Assembly: GCA_963598415.1 (NCBI GenBank)
Contig: CAVBUH010000058.1
Coordinates: forward strand, 16,421-80,420
Source of the DNA: Selenomonadaceae bacterium
GTDB taxonomy: Bacteria; Bacillota; Clostridia; Oscillospirales; CAG-272
DNA length: 64,000 nt
Direction: 5' to 3'
Shown in pieces: positions 1-63,284 of the stretch (position 1 is its first letter; each line of letters begins with the position of its first letter). A program made the translations under genes and the position numbers. A model generated the notes under the pieces. That model had not been told where the DNA came from. It searched no databases and saw only the letters and a list, made by a program, of their open reading frames with translations.

Positions 1-146
1 AGAAAACGTAGGCTTTTGCTGTATACGGCTATGTATGAAAAACGCCTGATTTTCTCGGTTTCTGATATATACATACCAAGTCAAAACAATGCCCCAGAAG
101 ATTCTCATGTAAATATTTCCGGGGAGTGAAGAAAGGAAAGTCGGAA

Positions 147-425
147 ATGAAAAACGGCGGACGTTTAAATTTTTTTGTGAAGCTTACTATCCTTGTGGTG
201 ATATGCTTTTGTGCCGTCAATATTATAAAACTTCGAACCGACTACAATGATCTAAAGGACAGAGAAGCGGAATTGCTTAAAGAAAAAGCGGAATATGAGG
301 AAGCGATTGATAAACTTAAGTTTGACCTTGAGCAAGAAATGGATGAAGATTATATAATGCGCATTGCAAGGGAAAAGCTGAATTATTATCTTCCGGATGA
401 AATTATTTTTTATAATGACCGCTGA
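147..425 (+). CDS. divIC: Septum formation initiator family protein (FtsB/DivIC-like)
   Basis: Small ORF with an N-terminal TM helix (FFVKLTILVVICFCAVNII), a coiled coil (LKDREAELLKEKAEYEEAIDKLK) and a C-terminal IMRIAREKLNYYLPDEIIF typical of the family. Start moved from GTG 126 to ATG 147, which follows AAAGGAAAG. Confidence 0.75.
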   Translation: MKNGGRLNFFVKLTILVVICFCAVNIIKLRTDYNDLKDREAELLKEKAEYEEAIDKLKFDLEQEMDEDYIMRIAREKLNYYLPDEIIFYNDR

Positions 426-478
426 TGAGACAGTTTTTAAGCTTTCTCTTGATTTTGTATTAGTTTTGGTTTATAATG

Positions 479-513
479 ATACCGTACTTCGAAATGAGTA
501 CGGTATATTTTTT
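479..513 (+). terminator. Intrinsic terminator downstream of divIC
   Basis: 10 bp perfect stem ATACCGTACT/AGTACGGTAT (479-488 / 497-506) followed by a T-run (508-513). Confidence 0.7.
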
Positions 514-765
514 ATCGGCGGATCGTCTTGATTTCTATAAAATAACAGGCAAAAGGAAAATTGGAAAACAGAGCGGGCGGAACAACGGAAAAACGTGATG
601 TGTTATGTGTCTATATCTGTGCCAGCACATCGTAGGTTTACGATGATAAAATTTTCTGTTTTGCCGTATGCTCTTGCTTTCCGACCGGCGGATTTTATGA
701 GCGCAGCTCGCTCATCGATTCCGGGGAAGACGATTCCGTTATTTTATGAAGGCTATGGTTATAAA

Positions 766-2136
766 ATGAAAAAATTAACACACAGTGAAAAAACTGCGGT
801 GATTGCCGCGGGAGTAATACTTTTTTTGTTTATCGGCGTTTCTGTGCTTGCTGTCATTCTTTTTGGTATGCTTGAGGATACTGAAAACAATTTTGCGGAT
901 TACAGAAAGAAAACCGAGATTAAACTTTCCGATCTTGAAAAGAATCATAACAACTCCCTGAATGATGTTTCCGAGCTCAAAAACGATCTTGAGCTTGCCG
1001 AAAAAAATAAAGCGGAGCTTGAAAAGTATATTGCTCAGATCGAAGCGGAAATGAAAGAGATGGAAGAGGGATTCGGCGATAAGGACGAGCTATACGGAGC
1101 TCTCAGCAGTCAGCTTTCCGAACTTAAAAAGATTCTTGAAGAGAAACAAACCGAAATTGACGCGTTAAAGCAAGATATAACAGAGCTTGAAAAAGTTTAC
1201 AGCGTTGATTTGAACAGTCAGATTCAGATATTGTCCGAGCTTGAAGCATTGCTTTCCGAAGGCGCGCCGATGAATAAAAACGAATCGGTGATTTTGAATC
1301 CCGACGGAACCCCCATGCTTGGTGATGACGGTCTTCCTGCAAAGGATATAACCTATGTTTATCCGAAAATATCGGTATATTATGAGGATCTCGAAAGAGG
1401 TTATAAATATGTTTGGAACGGAGATGCGGTTTATTCCTCCGCAAGCTGTGTAAAGGCGCCTTTTGCACTCACGGTACTGTCTGCGGCGTCGAAAGAAAAA
1501 GCGGAATATGATAAAAAGATCGCGGATCTTATCGCCCAAAACGGAAACGGGGGGGTTCTTCCGGATTTTACGCCTGTATATGATTTTAATAAAATTTTCA
1601 CCTATACCGAAGATAAATACCGTGCAGGCTCGGGGGTAATAAAAAATGAAGAATACGGCGTAGAATATACATATCTTGAGCTTATGCGATTGCTTCTTGA
1701 ATATAGTGACAATGTTGCTTTTGCTGAACTTAGGGCAGAATACGGAACCGATATGCTTAAGAAATTCGCCAAGCAAATAAACGCTGCCGCAATGAAAAAC
1801 AATATCTATAATGCGTCAGCTATCGATCTCGGAAAAACAATGAAGGAAATCTATTACTTTATTGAGAGCGATGCGGAATATGCTTCTTTTATGAAAGACG
1901 CTATGATGTCGTCTATACATACGGTAATGATCGGATACGGTGTGGCTCCTAAGAAGATTGCACATAAGTACGGGTGGGACACAGGGGCATATCATGATAT
2001 GGCTATCGTCTATGATGCTCACCCCTATGTTCTGGTTATCATGTCGGATATGGAGAAAGGAGGAAAAGAAATCAATTCATATATACAGGAGGTAGTTTCC
2101 CTCATTGATGATTTGCATGAAAATTTTTATAGGTGA
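766..2136 (+). CDS. Membrane-anchored serine hydrolase, class A beta-lactamase-like domain with coiled-coil linker
   Basis: ORF 595-2136. The likely start is ATG 766 (MKKLTHSEK), followed by a TM helix and a long coiled coil. The C-terminal domain carries S-x-x-K (SCVK), SDN (YSDN) and a KTG-like KYG triad. Confidence 0.7.
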   Translation: MKKLTHSEKTAVIAAGVILFLFIGVSVLAVILFGMLEDTENNFADYRKKTEIKLSDLEKNHNNSLNDVSELKNDLELAEKNKAELEKYIAQIEAEMKEMEEGFGDKDELYGALSSQLSELKKILEEKQTEIDALKQDITELEKVYSVDLNSQIQILSELEALLSEGAPMNKNESVILNPDGTPMLGDDGLPAKDITYVYPKISVYYEDLERGYKYVWNGDAVYSSASCVKAPFALTVLSAASKEKAEYDKKIADLIAQNGNGGVLPDFTPVYDFNKIFTYTEDKYRAGSGVIKNEEYGVEYTYLELMRLLLEYSDNVAFAELRAEYGTDMLKKFAKQINAAAMKNNIYNASAIDLGKTMKEIYYFIESDAEYASFMKDAMMSSIHTVMIGYGVAPKKIAHKYGWDTGAYHDMAIVYDAHPYVLVIMSDMEKGGKEINSYIQEVVSLIDDLHENFYR

Positions 2137-3863
2137 GTGATAATATTGTGAGAAAATTATACGCTGCCGGCAACGGTTCTGTTTTATTTGTTTCCGGGAA
2201 TTGTGTTGTCGATCATATCGGAACCTATTCGATTAACTTTTTTACTGCTGATCTTGATATGGATGGTGTTCTGTGCAAAAAGGAGTATATCCCCGGTGCG
2301 GTCGTAATTCGTTTTATCGGAAGGTCTCCTCTCGAAAAATCGGATGATTTGCATGCGGAAGTTAAGCTTACGGTCTATGCCGACCCGTTCTCGCAGATTA
2401 TATTTATTTCGATTGCCGCCATGTTTGATGTACACATAAAGATTCAGCCTTGCGAGAAGGTGAGATTTGAATTTTTTGAGAGCTATTCTTCCGATCTTGA
2501 AAAGCGGTCCTGCCTTAAACTGCTGCGGGAGGAAACGGCAATGTATCTCATGGCTGATGTGAACAGTGAGTTTGATAGAGAAAATATGCTTTTTCATATT
2601 AAACCGGGTTATTCAAGGCTCTTTGTGACCGTTCCGTCAGATGAAGAAAATTTCTTGAAATTCAAGGCACTTCTTAAAAAAATGCCTCCCGTTCTTATTT
2701 TCGATTCATCGCCTTCCGATTTATTGTATAAAAGTGTTTGCCGAAGAAAAAACTTGTTTTTTAAATGCAGAACAAATTTAAATGGGCTATCGGTAAAGTG
2801 GCAGGATATGATATCCTACTGCAGAGAAACCGTATATAATTTTCAATCGAAAAACGGAGGCTTTTTCAGTCTCGAGAATTCTTTTAATATGATTGATATG
2901 TGCCGTATTTTTCGGTTTCTTATTGCCGACGGAGATCAGCTTCAGGCAAAGGCTTTTGCAGAATTTATTTATTCTGTATTTGAAAAATATCGCAGCATAC
3001 CGTTTGTGTGTAATCCTGACAAAAACAGAGCGATTTTTTTAGAAAACACATATAATCCGGCGGGAGATGCGGTTCTTATTTCGTTATATGAGTATGAAAA
3101 ACAATTCGGTTCTTCTCACGATTCAAGAATTTCTGCAATAGCTGATACCGTTATGAAAAACGATTATCGATTGGTCAAAGGGGGAATGATGCCATTTTCC
3201 GGAATGGAGGGGTATTTTTATAATGCCCTAATGAAGCCGTGGCAAAGATTTCAAGGTTCGGCTGAATCCACGATGTGCTTTCTCGGCGCGGCAAGACGTT
3301 ATCTTGACATTATGGCAGATAAGCGAGATACACCGCAATACAAACGGATTGCAATGCTTGTAAAATACACAGTCGATGTATTTCCCGAAAATTTTTTTAG
3401 CGGAGAAAAGGTTTATCTTAATGCCCCGAAGCGTGCGGAACGGACCTATCATCCTCATACACTTTCCGGATTATGTGATAATTGTTTTAGATTCGGCCGT
3501 CTGGTTTACCGCTCGCATCGGTATCTTTGCGGCAAGTGCGAAGATATTGCGGATAAGCTGACTCATTCCTGCTGCGGAAGGGCATTTTTTAACGGAGCGG
3601 TTTTTCTCGACAGATATGTCGGGGCGGGATTATTTCCGGATAATACTGTATTTGAAGATATTTCCCCCGAGAAAATGAATACGGACGGTTTGATTATGAG
3701 CATAAAATATTACTGTCAGAGAAGGGATATACAGGCTCTTTTTCTATCTGAGCTTATATCAAGATATGAGAATTATCCCAAACGGTTTTCCTTTGCCCAA
3801 TTATGCCACGCAGCAGCGGAAACGGTCCGTATGCAGGCAAACGTCAGAAAAACAAACAATTAG
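2133..3863 (+). CDS. Hypothetical protein (576 aa, Cys-rich C-terminal part)
   Basis: Long ORF whose GTG start overlaps the upstream stop (GTGA). No family recognised. Contains CDNC...CGKC and SCCG motifs near the C-terminus. Confidence 0.6.
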   Translation: MSDNIVRKLYAAGNGSVLFVSGNCVVDHIGTYSINFFTADLDMDGVLCKKEYIPGAVVIRFIGRSPLEKSDDLHAEVKLTVYADPFSQIIFISIAAMFDVHIKIQPCEKVRFEFFESYSSDLEKRSCLKLLREETAMYLMADVNSEFDRENMLFHIKPGYSRLFVTVPSDEENFLKFKALLKKMPPVLIFDSSPSDLLYKSVCRRKNLFFKCRTNLNGLSVKWQDMISYCRETVYNFQSKNGGFFSLENSFNMIDMCRIFRFLIADGDQLQAKAFAEFIYSVFEKYRSIPFVCNPDKNRAIFLENTYNPAGDAVLISLYEYEKQFGSSHDSRISAIADTVMKNDYRLVKGGMMPFSGMEGYFYNALMKPWQRFQGSAESTMCFLGAARRYLDIMADKRDTPQYKRIAMLVKYTVDVFPENFFSGEKVYLNAPKRAERTYHPHTLSGLCDNCFRFGRLVYRSHRYLCGKCEDIADKLTHSCCGRAFFNGAVFLDRYVGAGLFPDNTVFEDISPEKMNTDGLIMSIKYYCQRRDIQALFLSELISRYENYPKRFSFAQLCHAAAETVRMQANVRKTNN

Positions 3864-6594: not shown

Positions 6595-6773
6595 TCGAGG
6601 CAATACCGCACAATTCCAAAAGGCAGAGATGTGCAGTCATATTTTTCATCAAACGATACCAATTAGGGGTAGAAGCGGCTCCTTTGCCGACGGAATTTTT
6701 GAAGTGTGACGGTATACGGACAAGCAGATATGCCGTTAAGGCACAAGCTGTGAACATGGCGGTGTTGCCTTAA
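6595..6773 (+). mobile_element. MITE-like palindromic repeat, family 1, subfamily 2 (copy A)
   Basis: 179 bp. Ends GAGGCAATACCGC ... GCGGTGTTGCCTTAA, with the shared core (TTTTTCATCAAACGATACCAATTAGGGG ... TTTGCCGACGGAATTTTTGAAG). Starts 11 nt after the ispE stop. Confidence 0.85.
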
Positions 6774-6969
6774 TCATATTCCTGCGCTTTTTGCCTTGCC
6801 GTTCAAAAAATCATCTCGGAAATCTGCATAGTCGATTGATTAGCCATTCCTTAGGTCAGTATAAGAATTATCGTGATACAATTATCAACGGAAAAATATG
6901 AAAAATAATTTTTTATAATCGTTTTAAAGAAATGACAGAGGATTCCGTCCAAAAATCAATAAAAGGCGA

Positions 6970-12085: not shown

Positions 12086-12958
12086 ATGAAGCTTTTTGAT
12101 TTGCATTGCGACACACTTACCGAGATCTATCGCCGGAACGAAAATATGCTTGAAAATTCATGTCATGTTTCCTTTCAGAATGCCTTTCGTACCTTTGACA
12201 GCTATAAGCAAATTATGGCTGTCTGGAGCGAAGATTCGCTTGATGGGGAGGAAAATTACCGGCGTTTTGACAAAATTGTTGACTATGCCGCACCTTTTTT
12301 GAGATATAACGGATTTGAATATATTCTCGCTGTTGAAGGCGCGAAGCTGTTATGTGGCGATATAAAAAGGCTTGAATATCTGTATGCTCGCGGGGTAAGG
12401 GTACTGACGCTTGTGTGGCAAGGCAATTGCTGTGTCGGCGGTGCCTATGATACGCATGACGGTCTTACCTCTTTCGGCAGAGAGGTAGTAGAAAGATGTT
12501 ATGATCTCGGAATCCTTCCCGATGTTTCTCATGCTTCCGACGAGTTATTTTACGATACGGCCGAAATAGCCGCTAAACGAAGAGGAACGATTATAGCAAG
12601 TCATTCCTGTTCGAGAACCGTTTTCGATCATCCGAGAAATTTGACCGATGATATGGCGAAGGTCATATCGGAGCTTGGCGGACTAATCGGAGTAAATATG
12701 GTGGTACAGCATCTCGGTTCTTCCGATATTTCTGCGGTTTGCGGGCATATTTCTCATCTTGCGGAACTTGCAGGAGAAGATAAAATCTGTCTCGGATGCG
12801 ATTTTGACGGTACCGATTTGCTGCCCGATGGAATTGAAAACATCAGCGACTTATCCCTGTTATACACGGCTTTGAGTGAAAGTCAATATGCACCGGGCTT
12901 TGCGGAAAAAATTTTTTATTCAAACGCACAAAATTTTTCAAAAAATCATCTTTTATAA
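12086..12958 (+). CDS. Dipeptidase (peptidase family M19-like)
   Basis: N-terminal FDLHCDTL and VSHASD, ASHS, GCDFDG metal-ligand-like motifs. Confidence 0.75.
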   Translation: MKLFDLHCDTLTEIYRRNENMLENSCHVSFQNAFRTFDSYKQIMAVWSEDSLDGEENYRRFDKIVDYAAPFLRYNGFEYILAVEGAKLLCGDIKRLEYLYARGVRVLTLVWQGNCCVGGAYDTHDGLTSFGREVVERCYDLGILPDVSHASDELFYDTAEIAAKRRGTIIASHSCSRTVFDHPRNLTDDMAKVISELGGLIGVNMVVQHLGSSDISAVCGHISHLAELAGEDKICLGCDFDGTDLLPDGIENISDLSLLYTALSESQYAPGFAEKIFYSNAQNFSKNHLL

Positions 12959-27531: not shown

Positions 27532-27850
27532 TTATAGCCTCTTATAAAAATCTTAATATGGATATTTTGTTCGATCACTGTTTTATTATTTACTTTAAGC
27601 TTATAAATATGTGTCCTTTTTACCTAAAAAGGATAGAAAATGAGAGAAGTTTTTCATCTCCGGATTAAGGAATCACAGAATAAATCGTCAACGTATTTTT
27701 CCGGCAGATTTTTTGCCTTCCGTTCAAAAAATCATCTTGGGAATCTGCTGTTTGATTTATTTAGTGATTTCTTAAAGGCAGAACGAGTCTGTGAAGATTT
27801 CCTGATGGGGGATATTCTGCGTTCTTTTCTGTTGCCTCGTTTCTTTTTAT

Positions 27851-28030
27851 TTAAGGCAACACCGCCGGGTGCACGGTTAATGCCTTTGTTGCACATTTGC
27901 TTGCGTCTTTTCCGTCAACCTTCACCAATTTCATCGGCAGAGGAGTCACGCTTTCCTCCTCAATTGGTATTGTCTGACGAAAAATCCGGCGGCGCAACTG
28001 TACAACAATCATTGTGCGGTATTACCTTAA
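27851..28030 (-). mobile_element. MITE-like palindromic repeat, family 1, subfamily 1 (copy B)
   Basis: 180 bp, TTAAGGCAACACCGCC ... GTGCGGTATTACCTTAA, with the core CCTCCTCAATTGGTATTGTCTGACGAAAAATCC. Confidence 0.9.
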
Positions 28031-28101
28031 TTTTGAACAGCGATTTTGCTATGCAAAATTCGGGAAAGGAAGCTTTCGATTTATGAAGGCTATAGTCTAA
28101 A

Positions 28102-33909: not shown

Positions 33910-35610
33910 ATGATTTACAGAGAAGAGCATCCAAAACCCCAATTTGAACGCAGAGATTGGATAAATTTGAACGGCGAATGGCAGTTTGAAATTGACCGTG
34001 GAAACAGCGGAGAAGAGAGAAAAATATACGCAGACGACATCACGTTGAAAAATGTGATTGTGGTGCCGTTTTGTCCGCAGAGTGAGCTTTCGGGAATAGA
34101 AGATAAGGATTTCATGAGTTCCGTATGGTATAAGCGAACCTTTGAACTTACGGAAGATCAGCTTTTTGGTCGTGTATATGCACACTTTGGCGCGGTGGAT
34201 TACCTTGCGACAGTATATGTAAACGGTCAGAAATGCGGTTCTCACAAAGGAGGATATGTTTCCTTCAGAGTTGATATTACCGATGCGGTACATGCCGGAA
34301 TGAATACAGTAACGGTGCATGCCGAAGACGATGAAAGAAATCGATTGATCCCAAGGGGAAAGCAGTGTGAGGGTTATTATTCGTGCGGATGCGATTATAC
34401 CCGTACCACAGGTATCTGGCAAACCGTTTGGCTTGAATTTGTTCCTGAAACTCACATTGAAAAAGTAAAGTATTATCCCTCTGTAAGCGCCAACACGCTT
34501 ACGCTGAGAGCAGAGGTCAAGGGTGCGGCACTTTTTACGGCAGAGGTTTTCTATGAAGGAAAACCGATGGGGAAGGCTTCTTCCGTTTCTTGCGGCGAGC
34601 AGATTTCTTTGACAATAACGCTTTCCGAAAAACATCTTTGGGAGGTCGGTAAAGGGGGACTGTATGATATTGTCCTTACCTATGGAGAAGATAGGGTAAA
34701 GAGCTATTTCGGTCTGAGAAGCATTGATTATCGTGACTATAAGTTCTTTCTTAACGGAAGATCGGTTTTTCAGCGTCTTATACTCGATCAAGGATTTTAT
34801 CCCGACGGCATTTATACTGCGCCGTCTGACAAGGAGCTTGAGGCTGATATTGACCGTTCAATGGCGATGGGCTTCAACGGCGCAAGACTTCATGAGAAGG
34901 TATTTGAAGAGAGATTCCTTTATCATGCCGATCGTAAGGGATATCTTGTATGGGGAGAATTTCCGAACTGGGGACTTGATCACTCTTATGCTGATTCCAT
35001 ATACGGAATACTCCCCGAATGGCTTGAAGAAGTTGACCGCGACTTCAATCATCCGTCCATTGTAGGGTGGTGTCCTTTCAACGAGACTTGGGATCAGAAG
35101 GGCAGAAAGCAATACGACGATTGTTTGGCACTTGTTTATAAGGCTACCAAGGCTGCAGATCCGACACGTCCCTGTATTGATACAAGCGGAAACTATCATG
35201 TCGTTACCGATATTTATGATGTGCATAACTACGAACAGAATCCGGAAATTTTGGCAGCACACTACGAAAAGCTTGCTCAAGACGGCACACATACCGATCA
35301 CTGTGGTCATCGTCAGCACTATGACGGAAAATTGCCTTTCTTCGTCAGCGAGTATGGAGGTATACGGTGGTCGAATAAAGGAGGATGGGGATACGGAAAC
35401 GCACCTCAAACAGAGGAGGAATTTCTTACCCGGCTTAAAGGGCTTACCGACGTGCTTCTTGATAACCCGAGAATGTTTGCTCTTTGCTATACACAGCTTA
35501 CCGATGTGGAGCAGGAACAGAACGGACTTTATACTTACGACAGAAAGGAAAAATTCCCCGCGGAAATAATTCATCCGATTTTCTCAAGAAAAGCTAAAAT
35601 TGAGGATTAA
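33910..35610 (+). CDS. Glycoside hydrolase family 2 protein
   Basis: GH2 sugar-binding and TIM-barrel pattern (LNGEWQF, VYVNGQKCGSHKGGY, GFNGARLHEK, WCPFNE...). The stop TAA abuts repeat copy C. Confidence 0.85.
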   Translation: MIYREEHPKPQFERRDWINLNGEWQFEIDRGNSGEERKIYADDITLKNVIVVPFCPQSELSGIEDKDFMSSVWYKRTFELTEDQLFGRVYAHFGAVDYLATVYVNGQKCGSHKGGYVSFRVDITDAVHAGMNTVTVHAEDDERNRLIPRGKQCEGYYSCGCDYTRTTGIWQTVWLEFVPETHIEKVKYYPSVSANTLTLRAEVKGAALFTAEVFYEGKPMGKASSVSCGEQISLTITLSEKHLWEVGKGGLYDIVLTYGEDRVKSYFGLRSIDYRDYKFFLNGRSVFQRLILDQGFYPDGIYTAPSDKELEADIDRSMAMGFNGARLHEKVFEERFLYHADRKGYLVWGEFPNWGLDHSYADSIYGILPEWLEEVDRDFNHPSIVGWCPFNETWDQKGRKQYDDCLALVYKATKAADPTRPCIDTSGNYHVVTDIYDVHNYEQNPEILAAHYEKLAQDGTHTDHCGHRQHYDGKLPFFVSEYGGIRWSNKGGWGYGNAPQTEEEFLTRLKGLTDVLLDNPRMFALCYTQLTDVEQEQNGLYTYDRKEKFPAEIIHPIFSRKAKIED

Positions 35611-35790
35611 TTAAGGCAATACCGCACAATGATTGTTGAGCAGTAGCGCCGCCGGATTTTTCGTCAGACGATATAAATTGAGGAAGCAAGAGTAACTCCT
35701 CTGTCGACGAAATTTGTGAAGTATGACGGAAAAGCTGCAAGCAAATGTGCAATAAAGGCGTTAGCTGTGTACCCGGCGGTATTGCCTTCA
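35611..35790 (+). mobile_element. MITE-like palindromic repeat, family 1, subfamily 1 (copy C)
   Basis: 180 bp, TTAAGGCAATACCGCACAATGATTG ... CCCGGCGGTATTGCCTTCA. Begins at the nucleotide after the GH2 stop codon. Confidence 0.9.
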
Positions 35791-35805
35791 TAAGGATTTC
35801 ATCAT

Positions 35806-36118: not shown

Positions 36119-36162
36119 TTTAAGGGAATACCGCACAATGATTATTGCACAGATGCGCCGCA
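36119..36162 (+). repeat. Solo left-end fragment of the family 1 repeat (copy D)
   Basis: TTAAGGGAATACCGCACAATGATTATTGCACAGATGCGCCGC matches the first ~44 nt of subfamily 1, then diverges. Confidence 0.7.
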
Positions 36163-39143: not shown

Positions 39144-39369
39144 TTTCGTTCCCTCGCAATTCAAATATATTTCGTCATATACCGACATATATATTATAAT
39201 ATATTTTACATGTAAGGTCAATGTCAATTCATACTGTTTTCACGTAAAATGAAATAGAATATTAGGTTGATTATGACCTCAAAATAAAAATTACTGCGGA
39301 GGTGCAAAAGTATGCTTTCAGAATTAATTTTGAGCGGAGCTGTTCATTCTGTAAATCGAAGTTAAAGTT

Positions 39370-39549
39370 TTAAGGTAACACCGTATAATTCACTGCTTGC
39401 GCCTTGACAGCATATCTGCTTGTCCATTTTCTGTTACACTTCACAAATTTTGTCGGCTGAGGGAACCGTTCTTGTTTCCTCAATTGGTATCGTTGATAAA
39501 AAATATGCCTGCGCATTTGTACCGTCAGAACCCAGCGGCATTGCCTTAA
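39370..39549 (-). mobile_element. MITE-like palindromic repeat, family 1, subfamily 2 (copy E)
   Basis: 180 bp, TTAAGGTAACACCG ... CAGCGGCATTGCCTTAA, with the core CACTTCACAAATTTTGTCGG...CCTCAATTGGTATCG. Confidence 0.88.
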
Positions 39550-39912
39550 AATAAAAATGCAATAACAGAGTTCGGTCTGAACTCTGTATAAAAGGGCGGC
39601 AATTTCCGCTGCTTAAGCCGGAAAGAAAAAACAATCACGAATTTTCCTCGACGGATTAGTGAAAAATAAAAAGATAAAAAATCTCCCCGAACTTAGTCCG
39701 GAGAGATTTTTGTCCTTACACTACAATTTAAATGCCGATTGATGTGAAAACGATTTAGGTGCCGCTTACTTACGAGTGAGTACACCTATCCCTTTGCGAT
39801 GACAAGAAGGAAAAGTATCTGCTATCTTTCGGATTTTTTGCTTCATACGCGCAAACAAATCTATGTAAAAATTCAAGTAAGAATTCTGTTCTATTGTAAT
39901 ATTGCGGAATAA

Positions 39913-47189: not shown

Positions 47190-47328
47190 GATGTTGCCTT
47201 TTTTCTTAATTGTGGTCTTAAAAAGAAAGATATATACAGCGTTTGTGTTTTATCAGAAAAACTCTGTCATAACAGGAAGCTGAATAAAATGCGTGGATTC
47301 ATATTGATACAGATAAGTCCGAATTAAT

Positions 47329-47649
47329 TTAAGGCAATACCGCCGGGTTCACGGCTTTCTTTAAGGATGCATCTTCAGGGCAATTTTCCGCCGTGCTTCA
47401 GGGTACCTCTAAAAATTCACGTCTCAAATCCGGTTCGATCCGGGTTCCGTCGTTCGTTTAAAAAATTCTTGGCAGATGGATACGCTGTCTGCGAAATTTT
47501 TGTTTGGACTGACGATTGCCGTTTGTGAATAAGAGATACCCTTCACAAATTTTGCCGACAGAGAAGTCGCTCTTGCCTCCTCTATTGGTATTGTCTGACG
47601 AAAAATCCAACTGCGTATCTGTACCGTCGAGCCCGGCGGATTGCCTTAC
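47329..47649 (-). mobile_element. MITE-like palindromic repeat, family 1, subfamily 2 (copy F), interrupted by a nested element
   Basis: Ends TTAAGGCAATACCGCCGGGTTCACGG ... CCCGGCGGATTGCCTTAC. 321 bp long because of a 141 bp insertion. Confidence 0.88.
47401..47541. mobile_element. Nested 141 bp MITE-like element, family 2
   Basis: Termini GGGTACCTCTAAAAATTCAC ... GTGAATAAGAGATACCC form an imperfect inverted repeat. Flanked by a direct TTCA (47397-47400 and 47542-47545), which is single in uninterrupted family 1 copies. Confidence 0.7.
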
Positions 47650-47758
47650 TTTTTGTCTGCATCAACCAAAAGATAATACATTATAAGAAAAAGACTTGCA
47701 CCAATAAAGCGGCAAGTCTTTTGTTAAATGTGAATACATCCGTACAGACGGGTAATTG

Positions 47759-48804: not shown

Positions 48805-48967
48805 CGGTATTCCTCCGTTTCCGCACATAATGGCGGTATTTATATAAGTAATGAAGGGGTAATAAGCATTTATTTTATTGCCGTTTATAGGATTATAACA
48901 TCATTTTATCTGTTTGTCAAGATTGCAGATGCAGACTTATTGACAAGAATTATCGATTATGATATAC

Positions 48968-49145
48968 TTAAGGCAATACCGCACAATGATTGTTGTGCAG
49001 TTGCGCCGCCAGATTTTTCGTCAGACAATACCAATTGAGGAGGCAAGAGTGCTCCTCTGCCGACGAACTTGTGAAGTATGACGGGAAAGATGCAAGCAAA
49101 TGCGAAGCATAGGCGTTTGCCGTGCACTCAGCGGTATTGTCTTAA
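48968..49145 (+). mobile_element. MITE-like palindromic repeat, family 1, subfamily 1 (copy G)
   Basis: 178 bp, TTAAGGCAATACCGCACAATGATTG ... CAGCGGTATTGTCTTAA. Ends 33 nt before the start codon at 49179. Confidence 0.9.
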
Positions 49146-49178
49146 AACAATATACAAATTTATTAAGAAAGAACGAAA

Positions 49179-54966: not shown

Positions 54967-54972
54967 AAAGGT

Positions 54973-55150
54973 TTAAGGCAATACTGCTGGGTTCACGGCT
55001 TGCGCCTTGATGGCATATCCGCTTGTTCATTTCTCGCCACACTTCACAAATTTTGTCGGCAGAGGAGCTAATCTTGCCTTTTCAATTTGTATCGTTTGAC
55101 AACACATGACTGCGCATCTGTACCATCAGAACCCGGCGGTATTACCTTAA
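54973..55150 (-). mobile_element. MITE-like palindromic repeat, family 1, subfamily 2 (copy H)
   Basis: 178 bp, TTAAGGCAATACTGCTGGGTTCACGG ... GAACCCGGCGGTATTACCTTAA. Starts 6 nt after the GDPD stop. Confidence 0.9.
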
Positions 55151-55364
55151 ACTTAGGTGTTGAGATTTAATATTCATTGAACAGATATTCGGAAATCAAG
55201 GCGTCAGTAGCTTTTGGCGCCTTTTTTATATAGGGACTTAATTATATATTCGGGCAACAAATTAAGAATTCTATGTCACAATATGGAGTTGTTTATTAAA
55301 TGAAAATATGATAAAATTATTTTGGATATATATGCAAAAGATGCAGAGGAAAGGATGAGACCAA

Positions 55365-56165
55365 ATGATACAATTAACTCCACCAATGGGCTGGAATTCA
55401 TGGAATACTTTCGGAAAAAATATAAGCGAAGTAACGTTGAGGGAGGCAGCTGATGCACTCGTTAAAACAGGACTTCGTGATTCCGGATATCAATATTTTG
55501 TAATTGACGATACCTGGGCATTGCGTGAACGCGGTAAAGACGGAAGGCTGATTCCGAATCCCGATAAATTTCCTAATGGAATTAAAGCTGTGAGCGATTA
55601 TGTTCATGATAAGGGATTAAAATTCGGTATATATTCGTGTGCGGGAACCATGACCTGCGCTCAATATCCCGGAAGCTATGAATACGAGTTTCTTGATGCC
55701 GAGACTTTTGCAGAATGGGGAGTTGATTTCCTTAAATACGATTATTGTTTTAAGCCGACATTTGAGAGAGGGGAGCTTCTATATCGCAGAATGGGGCTTG
55801 CTCTTGCTAACTGCGGACGGGATATTCTCTTTTCCGCTTGCTCATGGGGAAATGACGATACAAAATCCTGGATAAAGACAACAGGCGCTCATATGTGGCG
55901 TTCGACGCATGACGTTTTCGATTCGTGGGAATCTATAAAAATGAGAGCCAAGGAACAGCTTGATATACAAAAATACAATGGTTTAGGCTGTTTTAATGAC
56001 ATGGATATGCTTGTTGTCGGAATGAACGGAAAGGGAAATGTCGGTTTAACGCCGAGTTCTTTTGTTCAGTACCGTACACATTTTGCTTTGTGGGCACTGC
56101 TCGGTTCACCGCTTATGATAGGATGTGATATCCGTAATGCAGACGCCGATGTAATAGATTGCTGA
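55365..56165 (+). pseudogene. Alpha-galactosidase (GH27), apparently 3'-truncated
   Basis: LTPPMGWNSWN, LKYDYC (nucleophile region) and MWRSTHDV (acid/base region) are present. The ORF stops right after PLMIGCDIRN, so the usual C-terminal beta-sandwich domain is absent. Confidence 0.6.
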
Positions 56166-56190: not shown

Positions 56191-56817
56191 GTGGCAAAGA
56201 ACAATGGAGCGCCTTCGTATCTCATATATAAGATATGTGCGGATGAGGGAAAGCTTCTTTCTTCGCTGACAATTAAATCATATGCAAGTGTAAATGATTG
56301 GGAGGTGGACGGTGCCCCGCTTGCCGGAAATGAATTCGGTATCTATGTAAAATCAACCGATGATTTTGATTTTGAAAGCGATACACCTGCTGACGGTGCA
56401 AGTGGTATGGTCGGAAAGAAAAATCACACATGGAAGCTTGATGAATATGTAAATGGTAAAAGTGAAATATATGTCTGTATCTATTTTCTAAATAATAGCA
56501 GTTTTATTGATTGGGTACGGTTTTATTCTTTTGATTTTTCCGCAGCCGAAAAAATAAATGCTCCTGCAACAAGTTCTTCCGATACAGAGTCACAACCGGA
56601 GAGCACCACGTCGATGGGTTCCGGAACAGAAACCGATAATAACGCTTCGATTATATCGGGAACGAACGATGATTCTACAGATACAAGCGACATTATTGAT
56701 CCTGAGGAGAAGAATACCAATTTAATCGCAATTACTTTGATTGCTGTAGCGACAATTGCAGCTGTCATCGTAGTTGTGGCTATGATAAAAGTTGCAAAGT
56801 CTAATAAAACAGATTAA
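56191..56817 (+). CDS. Hypothetical protein with S/T/D-rich linker and C-terminal TM anchor
   Basis: GTG-start ORF. C-terminal LIAITLIAVATIAAVIVVVAMI anchor. Its stop codon TAA lies inside the TTAA terminus of repeat copy I. Confidence 0.55.
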   Translation: MAKNNGAPSYLIYKICADEGKLLSSLTIKSYASVNDWEVDGAPLAGNEFGIYVKSTDDFDFESDTPADGASGMVGKKNHTWKLDEYVNGKSEIYVCIYFLNNSSFIDWVRFYSFDFSAAEKINAPATSSSDTESQPESTTSMGSGTETDNNASIISGTNDDSTDTSDIIDPEEKNTNLIAITLIAVATIAAVIVVVAMIKVAKSNKTD

Positions 56818-56923
56818 GACAATACCGTACCATGATTGTTGTGCAGTTGCGCCGCTGGATTTTTCGTCAGACAATACAAGTTGAGGAGGCAAGAGTGACT
56901 CTTCTGCCGACGAAATTTGTGAA
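56509..56923 (+). repeat. 415 bp direct repeat, copy 1 (gene 3' end plus the first 110 bp of a family 1 repeat)
   Basis: Differs from 58894-59308 at only 3 positions (56518, 56519, 56902). Confidence 0.95.
56814..56923 (+). mobile_element. MITE-like repeat, family 1, subfamily 1 (copy I), truncated by an insertion
   Basis: The first 110 bp are identical, bar one base, to copy J. Broken after ...CGAAATTTGTGAA. Confidence 0.9.
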
Positions 56924-58121
56924 GGGATCTCTAAGGAATCACTGAATAAATCGCCAGCACCACATCCCTAAGAGTACCGCTTATGTTTCGGCAGATAATT
57001 GTAGGGAAGTGCGTTTTCTACTCAAAGTCAACGGTTTCATTTTTTTGCACTATTATCTACAATAGACATGTTTGAAAAAACGTTTGACCACAGATACTAC
57101 GTATTGTCTGTAATAATGTTGAAAATCTTCCTAATACAAGCCGTCTGTAAGGTTGCCGTTGTGCCTATCTCATAACGCTTGTGACGACGATCTATGCCTC
57201 ATAATAAGATAAGGGCCATAAAGAAATAGCGTATAAGCAAGCTGATTCCAAGGAGCTCTAATTTACCGTCGAACAGGTTTTGTAAAACTGCCACAAGGGG
57301 AAACGAACATCTCTACGAGGCAAGTAGAAGATTTTTTCGGGATTACGATTCTTTTAAGGTATATGCAATGTAGGAATCAAAGTCGCTGTTTCCTTCCGAA
57401 TTCTTTGTACCACTTTTTAATTTCTGCTCTGTACTCAAGACTGCGGACAAGGGAATTTGTAGCCTTTTAATTTTTTTAAGATGTCCATATTTTTATACTA
57501 AAATAAATAGAAGCGCTCTACCAAGGCTGTATTACAGCAGGTAAAGCGCTTTTGTTGTTCTATTTATTCTATTTTTTTATTTTTCTCGTGCCCACAGCCT
57601 CTTTATCCTTGTGTTGTCATAGCTTATGATATGTCTCTGTAGAGGAAGGAAAGCTCCCTTTGCAATTCCTGTCATAAAGCCGTACATAAGCTCCTCGGGA
57701 ATAAGATGGGTGACGGAAATGGCGTCAATGCTTTCTCTAAGAGAAGGATTTATTCTTGTGCCGTCGAAAAAAGACTATTTACTCTCTGTCTTACCATTGC
57801 CAGACATCTTGCCAAAGCAGTAAAATATCTTGCCCCTCGTCTTAAGACAGAAATCAAAAATTATCTCCTTCTCGCTATTGTTGAGAGTATTCATGTTTGC
57901 GAGAGGGGCAGGATGATGACGCTGTCTTGATTGGCCTTCTGGCAATGTAATTGACCATCTTATTACAAATACTCCCAAATATTGCAAATTTCCAATAAAA
58001 AAACTAATTTTAATCAATATTTTGAGCCCTATGCTCTATCCAAAAAAAGAATGCAGGTCAATAAAAATTATCTGTTCTCTCTACGAACATGAGAATTTTT
58101 CGAGAAATTCACATTTTTCTC

Positions 58122-58150
58122 TTGACAAGCTTCGTGCATTGATGTAAAAT
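58122..58150 (+). promoter_or_regulatory. Sigma-A type promoter candidate for the transaldolase-family gene
   Basis: TTGACA (58122-58127), 17 nt spacer, TAAAAT (58145-58150). Confidence 0.5.
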
Positions 58151-58202
58151 GTAGCCTGTTATAACAAATTCACTTAATGTTTCGCGCGATTTTGGAGAAC
58201 TC

Positions 58203-58850
58203 ATGAAAATTTTTATTGATACAGCAAATATCTCAGAAATCAAGGCTGCTTGGGATTTGGGAGTCATTAGTGGCGTTACGACAAATCCCACTTTGATTGC
58301 CAAGGAAGGCCGGAACTTCAAAGAGGTAGTCAAGGAAATTACTTCAATCGTTGATGGACCTATTTCCGCCGAGGTCATCTCGCTGCAACATGAAAAAATG
58401 GTTGAGGAAGCCCTTGAGCTTTCTGCTATCCATCCCAATATAGTAATCAAAATTCCTATGTGTACCGAAGGTTTAAAAGCGGTTAAGATTTTATCATCCA
58501 AAGGGATTCGCACCAATGTCACCCTAATCTTTTCTGCCGCTCAAGCCTTCCTCGCTTCTCGTGCGGGAGCCTCCTATGTCAGTCCATTTCTTGGCAGATT
58601 AGACGATATCGGGAGTGAGGGAATGACACTAATCAAGGACATCGTTGAAATCTTCCGTCATCAAGAAACCAAGACGGAAATAATCGGAGCAAGTATTCGT
58701 CATCCTATCCATGTCATTGAAGCCGCTAAATCAGGTTGTGATATAGCTACTATCCCCTATAAAGTCATCACGCAAATGGTTGGTCATCCTCTAACATCTA
58801 ATGGCATTGAAAAATTTCTCAAGGATTGGGAAACGCTTCAAAATAGCTGA
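58203..58850 (+). CDS. Transaldolase family protein, short form (fructose-6-phosphate aldolase/TalC-like)
   Basis: [22 protein letters not shown]...[13 protein letters not shown] (Schiff-base Lys region)...[11 protein letters not shown]. 215 aa, typical of the short subfamily. Confidence 0.9.
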
Positions 58851-58893
58851 AACTCTATTTTTATCCCGCAAACACGAATTTATTTTCAAAGAA

Positions 58894-59202
58894 GATTGGG
58901 TATTGTTTTATTCTTTTGATTTTTCCGCAGCCGAAAAAATAAATGCTCCTGCAACAAGTTCTTCCGATACAGAGTCACAACCGGAGAGCACCACGTCGAT
59001 GGGTTCCGGAACAGAAACCGATAATAACGCTTCGATTATATCGGGAACGAACGATGATTCTACAGATACAAGCGACATTATTGATCCTGAGGAGAAGAAT
59101 ACCAATTTAATCGCAATTACTTTGATTGCTGTAGCGACAATTGCAGCTGTCATCGTAGTTGTGGCTATGATAAAAGTTGCAAAGTCTAATAAAACAGATT
59201 AA
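58894..59202 (+). pseudogene. Duplicated 3' fragment of the 56191-56817 gene
   Basis: Encodes the same last ~100 residues as the gene at 56191-56817. The upstream part (58801-58893) shows only diverged similarity and there is no credible start. Confidence 0.6.
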
Positions 59203-59308
59203 GACAATACCGTACCATGATTGTTGTGCAGTTGCGCCGCTGGATTTTTCGTCAGACAATACAAGTTGAGGAGGCAAGAGTGACTCCTCTGCCGACGAAA
59301 TTTGTGAA
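58894..59308 (+). repeat. 415 bp direct repeat, copy 2
   Basis: See copy 1. The identical antisense ORFs in the supplied track (56523-56768 and 58908-59153) are consistent with this. Confidence 0.95.
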
Positions 59309-59378
59309 ATATGACGGAAAAGATGCAAGCAAATGCGCAATAAAGGCGTTAGCTATGTACCCGGCGGTATTGCCTTAA
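59199..59378 (+). mobile_element. MITE-like palindromic repeat, family 1, subfamily 1 (copy J), intact
   Basis: 180 bp, TTAAGACAATACCGTACC ... CCCGGCGGTATTGCCTTAA. Confidence 0.9.
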
Positions 59379-59680
59379 CTTTAGTCATAAAAACCGCCGA
59401 CCAAACCGATGGCTTGTCCGGTGCTATAAAGGTAAGCTCCCGGTAGGGTGAAAGCCGTCGAAAAGCTTGATGCCTCTGCTACAAATGGAGGTTTTCACAT
59501 TTATGAGGATAGTCTCAGGTTTTGACTTGGAAGCAGATCAATCTGTAATATCTGATATCGAAAAGAAATGGAGAAAAATCGACAGAAGTCGGGAGCGTTT
59601 GGAGAAAATATAGCATTTATGAATAAGAAACGAAGTTTCTGATGACAATAAATAAAAATAAATTGCCGGAGGAAATTGGT

Positions 59681-62741: not shown

Positions 62742-62932
62742 TGAAAAATTTTCTGTCTGATGCCGGTCTGCATATTGGACTCGGAGGGCTGTTCTGTCAT
62801 TAAAAAATGCGTGAAGCATCAGTTATATCTGGCTTGCGGAAACAGATCCGGTAAGTTTTGCGCATCTTCTCGATGTAAAATTTGGAGAGCAAGTGCTTTT
62901 GCAGGAAGATGCTTGAATGCTTTCAGAAATAT

Positions 62933-63284
62933 TTAAGGCAATACCGCACAATTACCAACTAACGCCTTGACAGCACAGCTACTTGCCTATTTTCCGACAT
63001 TCGTCACAAAAAATAACGCAATAGGAGCCGCTATTGCCTATATTTTTGTGTTGGGCTGTTGCGTTAAGCAATAAGCCTGGCATTTTCCCGGTCGTGAAAA
63101 TGCCGAATCGGGTGTTTTTGACTGTATTTTCTTTGGATTATTATGAATTTAAATGGTCAAAATTGCGGATTGCATCCGCAAAACCCGACTTCGTGGGGTA
63201 GTCGCACGTTAGTGCGACAGCCCCTTGAATCCCAAAAACTATGACGGCGCATCTGCGCTGTCATAACCCGGCGGTATTACCTCA
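62933..63284 (-). mobile_element. MITE-like palindromic repeat, family 1, subfamily 2 (copy K), with ~170 bp of extra internal sequence
   Basis: Ends TTAAGGCAATACCGCACAATT ... AACCCGGCGGTATTACCTCA. The extra sequence at about 63053-63224 contains strong hairpins. Confidence 0.8.

Follow-up and report, generated by a model that had tools for sequence, protein, structure and literature searches.

In lambda dgal-type transducing heterogenotes, a circle that carries host DNA and owes its closure to one illegitimate joint enters the chromosome through a single crossover, which duplicates the segment that the two share. RecA-dependent gain, loss and amplification also take place between long direct repeats, as in IS26-type translocatable units and tandem amplifications, and talC is a known phage-borne auxiliary metabolic gene (PHROG 440). 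In Escherichia coli, the prophage e14, which resides in icd, leaves a 163-bp pseudo-icd' duplicate (PMC6379469). Here, we describe a locus with features of each of these systems, in which an intact transaldolase gene (tal) lies between the two copies of a 415-bp direct repeat. It is located in a 64,000-nucleotide stretch of DNA from a Selenomonadaceae bacterium (GenBank assembly GCA_963598415.1, contig CAVBUH010000058.1, positions 16,421 to 80,420 of the forward strand), which we refer to as the window and in whose coordinates positions are given. The region is a structural scar of old age, maintained by selection, and it is neither an active cassette nor a new mobile element. It belongs with those cryptic remnants of prophages and transposons that hold captured genes between integration-derived repeats, and its mechanism is not new.

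The two repeat copies, R1 (56509 to 56923) and R2 (58894 to 59308), are both on the forward strand and differ by exactly three mismatches: CG at 56518/56519 is replaced by TT at 58903/58904, and the T at 56902 by a C. They have an identical core of 382 bp, and the homology between them ends sharply at both edges. Each copy is made up of 309 nucleotides (nt) from the 3' end of the open reading frame (ORF) at 56191 to 56817, including its stop codon, and the first ~110 nt of a family-1 element, a ~181-nt repeat that resembles a miniature inverted-repeat transposable element (MITE); nhmmer placed positions 4 to 118 of the family-1 model at 56811 to 56925. The ORF is a 5'-truncated surface-protein gene; since its complete 3' end is provided by R1, the gene was at no time interrupted by the insertion. 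Between the repeats lie 1,970 bp (56924 to 58893), here called the cassette, which encode the intact tal gene and form a 2,385-bp unit together with one repeat copy. An earlier note on this DNA, made from its letters alone, had already described the direct repeat with its three mismatches, its composition of a gene end plus the first 110 bp of a family-1 repeat and the 1,970 bp in between, and sequence comparison confirmed all of this.

The left junction of the cassette (J1) reads CGAAATTTGTGAA|GGGATCTCTAAGGAATCAC, compared with TGAA|ATATGACGG in the complete family-1 copy J (59198 to 59378, forward strand; nhmmer E value, 1.3e-66), whose first 110 nt are located inside R2. R1 and R2 both end in TGAA and thus flank the unit as a formal 4-bp duplication, with both TGAA copies lying within the 415-bp repeat. 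The right junction (J2; 58893/58894), which follows a 43-nt spacer (58851 to 58893, forward strand), is sharp in the window and in the sister lineage discussed below. It is a simple illegitimate joint that leads into the middle of the surface-protein gene and is devoid of any transposon signature. The suggestion that the gene continues upstream of R2 in diverged form (FIFKEDWV versus IYFLNNSSFIDWV) had to be abandoned, since 46 of 500 shuffled sequences scored equally well. A chimeric ORF of 133 amino acids (aa) at 58801 to 59202 begins in the 3'-terminal part of tal and extends across R2, the displaced gene end; it is predicted to encode the surface protein's linker and membrane anchor.

Through exact-protein look-ups, we recovered approximately 30 independent human-gut metagenome contigs of the locus. 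If A denotes the left flank, B the cassette and C the right flank, contigs L003 and L005 read A-R1-B-R2, and their repeat copies differ at six sites in the first 242 nt; L006 and L105 read B-R2-C. In all, filled alleles were found in L001 to L006 and L105. The layout is real and not an assembly artefact, the possibility that the earlier note had wished to see excluded, as these independent contigs support two repeat copies. A collapsed or falsely expanded repeat would be in keeping with the 382-bp identical core of the window copies and with the 2.4-kb loop contigs that several assemblies yielded, but L003 and L005 cross from the left flank into R2 with six differing sites, L006 crosses from the cassette into the right flank, and the gene-end copies of the sister lineage are inverted, which makes a collapse impossible there. 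We therefore regard an artefact as very improbable. Contigs of ~2.4 kb with the order cassette-repeat-cassette (B-R-B) comprise L007, L008, L106, L155 and the start of L105. The SPAdes scaffold L105 runs, in its positions 1 to 3059, from the 3' end of tal through a repeat, a whole cassette and a further repeat into the right flank; its two copies of 674 nt are identical except at the T/C marker (56902 in the window), and this strain could carry a tandem duplication of the 2,385-bp unit. A metagenome scan with the 275-aa full-length surface protein brought nothing further beyond a copy of L102 and one additional loop contig.

The age of the structure follows from a comparison with L104 (GCA_964311565.1), a lineage ~6.5% diverged from the window. 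L104 has both junctions of the window, J1 (TGAA|GGGGATCTCTAAGG) and J2 (AAAGAA|GATTGGGGACGG). Identity between the two amounts to 93.5% over the left end of the cassette and the adjoining scrap of a phage terminase gene (terL), 89.6% over the stretch from 57581 to 58015, 92.7% over the tal block and 93.0 to 93.5% over the right flank. With divergence in the cassette equal to that in its flanks and J1 and J2 common to both lineages, both junctions are older than the split, and the insertion is therefore old and retained rather than recent. The earlier note had held that a related genome with tal ancestrally at this site and no interrupted repeat would speak against an insertion. In L104, tal is indeed present, inverted and pseudogenised, but the interruption is there as well.

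We next considered selection on tal, using three outgroup loci to polarise its changes. The branch leading to the window has 16 synonymous and 3 nonsynonymous changes, and the L104 branch has 20 and 3, respectively. Since the changes are mostly synonymous, tal has been under purifying selection most of the time in both lineages. The L104 gene contains three frameshifting indels, and given the long purifying selection on both branches, its inactivation is recent. Few tal variants were seen in the window's clade; those in L106 (895 to 1542) and L105 (1954 to 2601) have four and one nonsynonymous changes, respectively, and no synonymous ones, a departure from the long-term synonymous bias that could stem from selection having relaxed in some strains or from sequencing error. 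L104 further differs from the window by an inversion of the block at 58024 to 59604 (12015 to 13437 in L104), which reaches from tal to the upstream region of a rubrerythrin gene. Its breakpoints fall in a 7-bp inverted repeat, formed by ATATTTT at 58017 to 58023 on the left and its partner AAAATAT at 59605 to 59611 on the right. With the gene-end copies inverted, loss of the cassette by a simple crossover is blocked in L104.

R1 and R2 are 99.3% identical in the window and 95.8% identical in L104. As the cassette predates the split between the two, this near-identity is no sign of youth, and the mosaic haplotypes of R1 in L002 and L004 and of R2 in L006 show that it comes from repeated gene conversion. 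Other strains of the window's clade have an R2 with four extra single-nucleotide polymorphisms (SNPs; 56583, 56585, 56643 and 56654). The TT at 58903/58904 is a later substitution, because the displaced copy of L104 has CG at this position; for the same reason, we rejected the left-edge CG/TT difference as microhomology or a marker of the donor.

Alleles that lack the cassette were found as well. Five contigs of the window's clade (L012, L013 and L156 to L158) contain one gene copy, a complete family-1 MITE and the right flank, at 99.4 to 99.9% identity (98.3 to 98.8% in L157) and with the same fusion to an alpha-galactosidase gene on the left. Three further empty alleles (L102, L103 and L107) have an intact 275-aa surface-protein gene and a MITE that lacks its first ~52 nt (10828 to 10883 in L102). 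The sister allele with one gene copy and an intact repeat, which the earlier note had predicted, therefore exists, in the five contigs of the window's clade and also in L102 and L103. R1 with its upstream sequence and R2 with its downstream sequence are both collinear with the empty alleles, so that the insert has the direct duplication of a shared segment on either side that characterises a Campbell integrant. At least two repeat haplotypes occur among the empty alleles: L012 and L013 combine the R1 (CG) edge with R1-type SNPs, while L156 and protein P0134 combine the CG edge with R2-type SNPs. Two such recombinant haplotypes are the outcome expected if R1 and R2 had crossed over independently and at different places. 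Given that the cassette predates the split between the window and L104, the empty alleles of the window's clade are in our view secondary losses by recombination, which explain them at least as well as an ancestral state; they may also have been acquired by allelic replacement from strains in which the site was never occupied. Presence/absence alleles with different crossover points, repeat conversion and cassette-repeat-cassette contigs are all reminiscent of IS26-type units, although the repeats here consist of a host gene and a MITE instead of insertion sequences, and circles and tandem copies are putative.

The tal gene (58203 to 58850, forward strand) is an intact fsa/talC-type gene for a transaldolase or fructose-6-phosphate aldolase of 215 aa. 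The assignment to the transaldolase family, first made by eye, is supported by matches of the product to Pfam family PF00923 (TAL_FSA; E value, 1.4e-61; 208.8 bits against a cutoff of 27) and to TIGR00875 (fsa_talC_mipB; 320.2 bits against a cutoff of 245.95; residues 1 to 211 of 213). The protein has D6 as well as K83, the latter within IVIKIP; we take an N-terminal aspartate and a Schiff-base lysine in (V/I)K(I/V)P to be the catalytic residues of the fsa/talC family and predict this role for D6 and K83. The promoter region (58058 to 58202, forward strand) is conserved with the tal loci of other species and includes a predicted consensus promoter, TTGACA-17-TAAAAT, at 58122 to 58150 and GGAGAA in front of the ATG.

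Homology to the tal loci of other species spans only the block of promoter and gene (58058 to 58843). The closest of these relatives, at 93% aa and 79% nt identity, are always found beside a gene for an AraC-type regulator. A decayed AraC regulator, which these loci would lead one to expect upstream of tal, is absent here, where homology begins only at ~58058. The homology check of tal's origin proposed in the earlier note returned close relatives that are cellular (80 to 93% aa identity), and by tal and by the distribution of the MITEs, the closest named relatives of the organism are Oscillospiraceae/Ruminococcus-like. Like the talC genes of phages, tal is a talC-class gene next to phage DNA, and it matches phrog_440 (4.5e-78). 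However, its best viral relatives are just 43 to 47% identical, whereas the cellular ones are far closer and lie beside AraC regulators, and we therefore rejected tal as a phage auxiliary gene. Because of this low viral identity, tal is a captured cellular gene with its own promoter and not a gene of phage origin.

Phage DNA does occupy part of the cassette. A pseudogene fragment of terL, the gene for the terminase large subunit, lies at 56957 to 57454 on the reverse strand and covers approximately residues 20 to 213 of ~533, with several in-frame stops. It was found in the homology check of the decayed region that the earlier note had called for, by its similarity to protein P0161 (44% identity over 121 aa; pairwise E value, 7e-23; database-wide E value, 5e-13) and to IMG/VR phage contigs (tblastx E value, 3e-31). 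P0161 itself matches phrog_38, terminase large subunit (1.7e-55), so that a homologue of a phage packaging protein is present, as in a prophage remnant. Upstream of terL lies a hairpin-containing stretch (57505 to 57578, reverse strand) with 80 to 86% blastn identity to the sequence immediately upstream of terL in phages L108 to L110; this region is thus conserved in the related phages. About 0.6 kb of phage DNA survives in total. No ORF or pseudogene with similarity to an integrase or recombinase was detected in 56924 to 58893, and the related phages (L108 to L137) have nothing like R, the family-1 MITE or the inverted repeat. The following stretch (57581 to 58015), which has no conserved reading frame, is the most diverged from L104, with 21 indel columns; it matched no RNA family in Rfam and no protein homologue. 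A reverse-strand pseudo-ORF at 57560 to 58017 had no match in Pfam or NCBIfam and no homologue in the protein database, and blastn of 56924 to 58202 against plasmid and phage record collections gave no match.

At J1, the cassette begins with 33 nt (56924 to 56956, forward strand; GGGATCTCTAAGGAATCACTGAATAAATCGCCA) that resemble the terminal inverted repeat (TIR) of a transposon, and the terL fragment abuts this end directly and is cut there. The first ~10 nt are like the ends of a 141-bp MITE at 47401 to 47541, which has the inverted ends GGGTATCTCT... and ...AGAGGTACCC, is nested in family-1 copy F and has TGAA on both sides. J1 is at the same TGAA, as the earlier note had recognised, along with the likeness of the two termini. 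A closer match is the inverted repeat (TTAAGGAATCACAGAATAAATC) of a second MITE family at 27666 to 27776, ~111 nt long with 22-nt inverted ends and a half copy at 6788 to 6853: 23 of the 25 positions of 56932 to 56956 are identical to it. For the core GGAATCACTGAATAAATCG, 0.07 occurrences would be expected in the window, and three are present. No right-hand inverted repeat was found in the cassette, again in agreement with the earlier note; the best reverse-complement match within 56991 to 59400 is only 9 nt long. Nor was a transposase gene found there, and while purifying selection kept tal intact, the greater part of the insert has decayed. The elements at 47401 to 47541 and 27666 to 27776 thus qualify as MITEs and the cassette, with an inverted repeat at its left end only, does not: it is neither an insertion sequence or transposon, having one end and no transposase, nor an intact prophage, having no integrase.

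To look for a parent element, we scanned GTDB species representatives for the inverted-repeat core TAAGRAATCACWRAATAAATC. The scan returned 78 loci, all of them MITEs of 100 to 260 nt or solo ends, in genomes of Ruminococcus, Oscillospiraceae, Huintestinicola and Hominimerdicola; ~30 of the loci are in one metagenome-assembled genome, RUG10944. None of the 78 is from the window's own species, and none has a transposase beside it. The left end of the cassette is thus comparable to a nested MITE, being inverted-repeat-like, located at the same TGAA as the 141-bp MITE and equipped with a core common to a Ruminococcus/Oscillospiraceae MITE family, but unlike MITEs, the cassette is one-ended, 2 kb long and filled with phage and cellular DNA. 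The TGAA inside the abundant family-1 MITE has been hit at least twice by related TIR elements, which is only a mildly new point for the biology of mobile elements.

From the anatomy, the shared junctions, the co-divergence, the selection on tal, the repeat conversion, the empty alleles and the inversion, all of them observed directly, we infer how the locus may have originated. A TIR element associated with phage DNA would have inserted at the TGAA of the MITE that follows the surface-protein gene. A circle comprising ~0.3 kb of the gene's 3' end, 110 nt of the MITE, the junction, phage DNA and tal would then have been closed by one illegitimate joint (J2), and a single crossover within the shared gene segment would have put this circle into a chromosome with an uninterrupted site, leaving the gene complete at R1 and a second, displaced 3' end at R2. 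The present behaviour of the locus is due to homologous recombination of the host between the repeats: conversion keeps R1 and R2 alike, and crossovers between them delete the 2,385-bp unit to give empty alleles and possibly amplify it or release it as a circle. The sister lineage underwent a separate inversion of the tal half at the 7-bp inverted repeat, with tal pseudogenised later. Like a lambda dgal heterogenote, the locus has host DNA beside an old insertion junction, one illegitimate joint and a duplicated shared host segment; in contrast to it, there is no sign of packaging, a helper phage or a recent event, and the structure is fixed in two diverged lineages. The Campbell-type integration considered in the earlier note thus gains from the structure, the sister allele and the presence of phage DNA as a plausible circular vehicle, but the event was not recent. 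We consider a Campbell-type origin from a phage-derived circle the best, if unproven, model and assign it a probability of roughly one half.

Several findings weigh against it. Neither a circular donor nor an integrase, an att core or a complete parent element came to light, and the GTDB scan for the core yielded only MITEs and solo ends, with no transposase. The B-R-B contigs may be assembly-graph loops and fit a circle, a tandem copy or a loop equally well, and the empty contigs, which come from short-read metagenomes, could in principle represent mixed populations. The direction of gain versus loss rests on three lineages with no outgroup. Furthermore, the displaced gene copy of L104 has no family-1 MITE behind it, such that copy J is without a counterpart at the matching position; an extra step, excision or allele replacement, is needed. 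At 12240 to 12260 of L104, the displaced copy runs directly into the sequence from 59378 onward (GATTA|CTTTAG), one base short of the expected TTAA empty site, which is either a near-precise excision of the MITE or a site that was never occupied.

Two features are common to all models in which the structure is real and robust to the choice among them: at the TGAA hotspot, the junction is of the transposon type, and at 58893/58894, it is illegitimate. The likeliest of the alternatives, if still an unlikely one, is site-specific phage integration of the e14/icd type, with attP in a phage-borne gene 3' end, R1 and R2 as attL and attR, the core at the left edge of R and a prophage later cut down to 2 kb. 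In both cases, phage DNA is bracketed by a direct duplication of a gene 3' end, the gene remains intact with a displaced pseudo-3' copy, and the remnant is a hotspot for deletion, inversion and the capture of foreign genes. A terL remnant between repeats that begin inside a gene and pass its stop codon, leaving it intact, is what such an event would produce, with the 163-bp pseudo-icd' duplicate of e14 as precedent (PMC6379469). The cassette differs from e14 in that its ~0.6 kb of phage DNA (the terL fragment) comes with neither an integrase nor a recognisable att core, and that the repeat is longer (309 to 415 bp) and contains, besides the gene end, a piece of a host MITE with a transposon junction. 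A phage-borne copy holding 110 nt of host MITE that end at a transposon junction would point to host sequence acquired recently, and not to an attP arm that had evolved as such, and the related phages L108 to L137 carry nothing of the kind.

An origin in situ, also unlikely and ranked after the e14 type, would start from an element in the TGAA of the MITE; an illegitimate exchange between sister chromatids (58893 x 56509) would duplicate R and B, and precise excision of the second element would restore the MITE. The plain character of J2 is consistent with such an exchange, the TGAA-flanked 141-bp MITE suggests insertion with a 4-bp duplication that could allow precise excision, and the missing MITE after R2 in L104 suggests excision-like events at the site. 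This route requires at least three rare steps, precise excision among them, and its intermediate, A-R-B-R-B-Z, was not seen among the ~30 contigs. We consider it improbable that one-ended transposition, the alternative considered in the earlier note alongside Campbell integration, moved a 2,381-bp unit (56924 to 59304) into the TGAA of copy J by means of the left inverted repeat and a cryptic end in the family-1 MITE, duplicating TGAA; this idea is neither supported nor refuted. R1 and R2 do both end in TGAA, and the AGTGACTCC of the MITE (59279 to 59287) matches the inverted core at 8 of 9 positions, 18 to 26 nt before the TGAA. On the other hand, the match was noticed post hoc, J2 would have to pre-exist, no right inverted repeat was found, and there is no transposase here or beside related ends elsewhere. 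The motif, AGTGACTC(T/C), is present in both repeat copies (56894 to 56902 and 59279 to 59287), inside the family-1 MITE, and resembles the inverted core AGTGATTCC of the cassette's terminal repeat; it might account for the site preference or serve as a surrogate end.

Family-1 elements have the inverted ends TTAAGGCAATACCGC and GCGGTATTGCCTTAA, with TTAA at both borders. They were located by nhmmer at 11 places in the window, which is unusually dense: 6597 to 6775, 27848 to 28033, 35607 to 35792, 36119 to 36162, 39368 to 39550, 47326 to 47650, 48964 to 49148, 54972 to 55153, 56811 to 56925, 59196 to 59381 and 62931 to 63039. At 62927 to 63282, a family-1-like copy has ~200 nt of unrelated sequence in place of its middle or inserted into it; the position is not that of the TGAA site. 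The family-1 element has no match in Rfam, and apart from one tRNA elsewhere, Rfam matched nothing in the window or the cassette.

On the left flank, the ORF at 56191 to 56817 (forward strand, 208 aa), the 3' end of which forms the gene part of R1, is by comparison with its relatives a 5'-truncated gene for a secreted protein with a C-terminal membrane anchor. Full-length relatives (P0132, P0135, P0140 and P0141) have 275 aa with a signal peptide, a linker rich in Ser, Thr and Asp and a C-terminal membrane anchor; the protein matched nothing in Pfam, NCBIfam or PHROG. Upstream lies a truncated alpha-galactosidase gene (55365 to 56165, forward strand) of 266 aa, which retains the Melibiase_2 domain only (PF16499; E value, 4.5e-64). 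It is cut after this domain, and at about 56155/56156 the sequence passes into the 275-aa surface-protein gene, which is joined at its residue ~56; homology to the intact gene of L102 and L104 begins at 56156. In L102 to L104 and L107, the intact gene is preceded by genes for two ~1,100-aa proteins instead, indicating a large deletion or rearrangement at this place in the window's clade.

Together, these results indicate that a working metabolic gene can long persist within what remains of a wrecked phage and transposon insertion. They also call for caution in dating such structures, because the near-identical flanking repeats reflect gene conversion here and not a recent insertion. A more far-reaching reading, which we think distinctly doubtful, is that the 2,385-bp unit behaves as a recombinase-free, RecA-driven, episome-like module, with excision as a circle, tandem amplification and re-entry into other strains by homology, and that the family-1 TGAA is a dedicated landing pad for TIR elements. 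If this were true, the presence and copy number of fsa/talC would be a reversible switch in a gut Eubacteriales population. Irrespective of this, the long direct repeats left by integration turn tal into a presence/absence polymorphism in the gut population.

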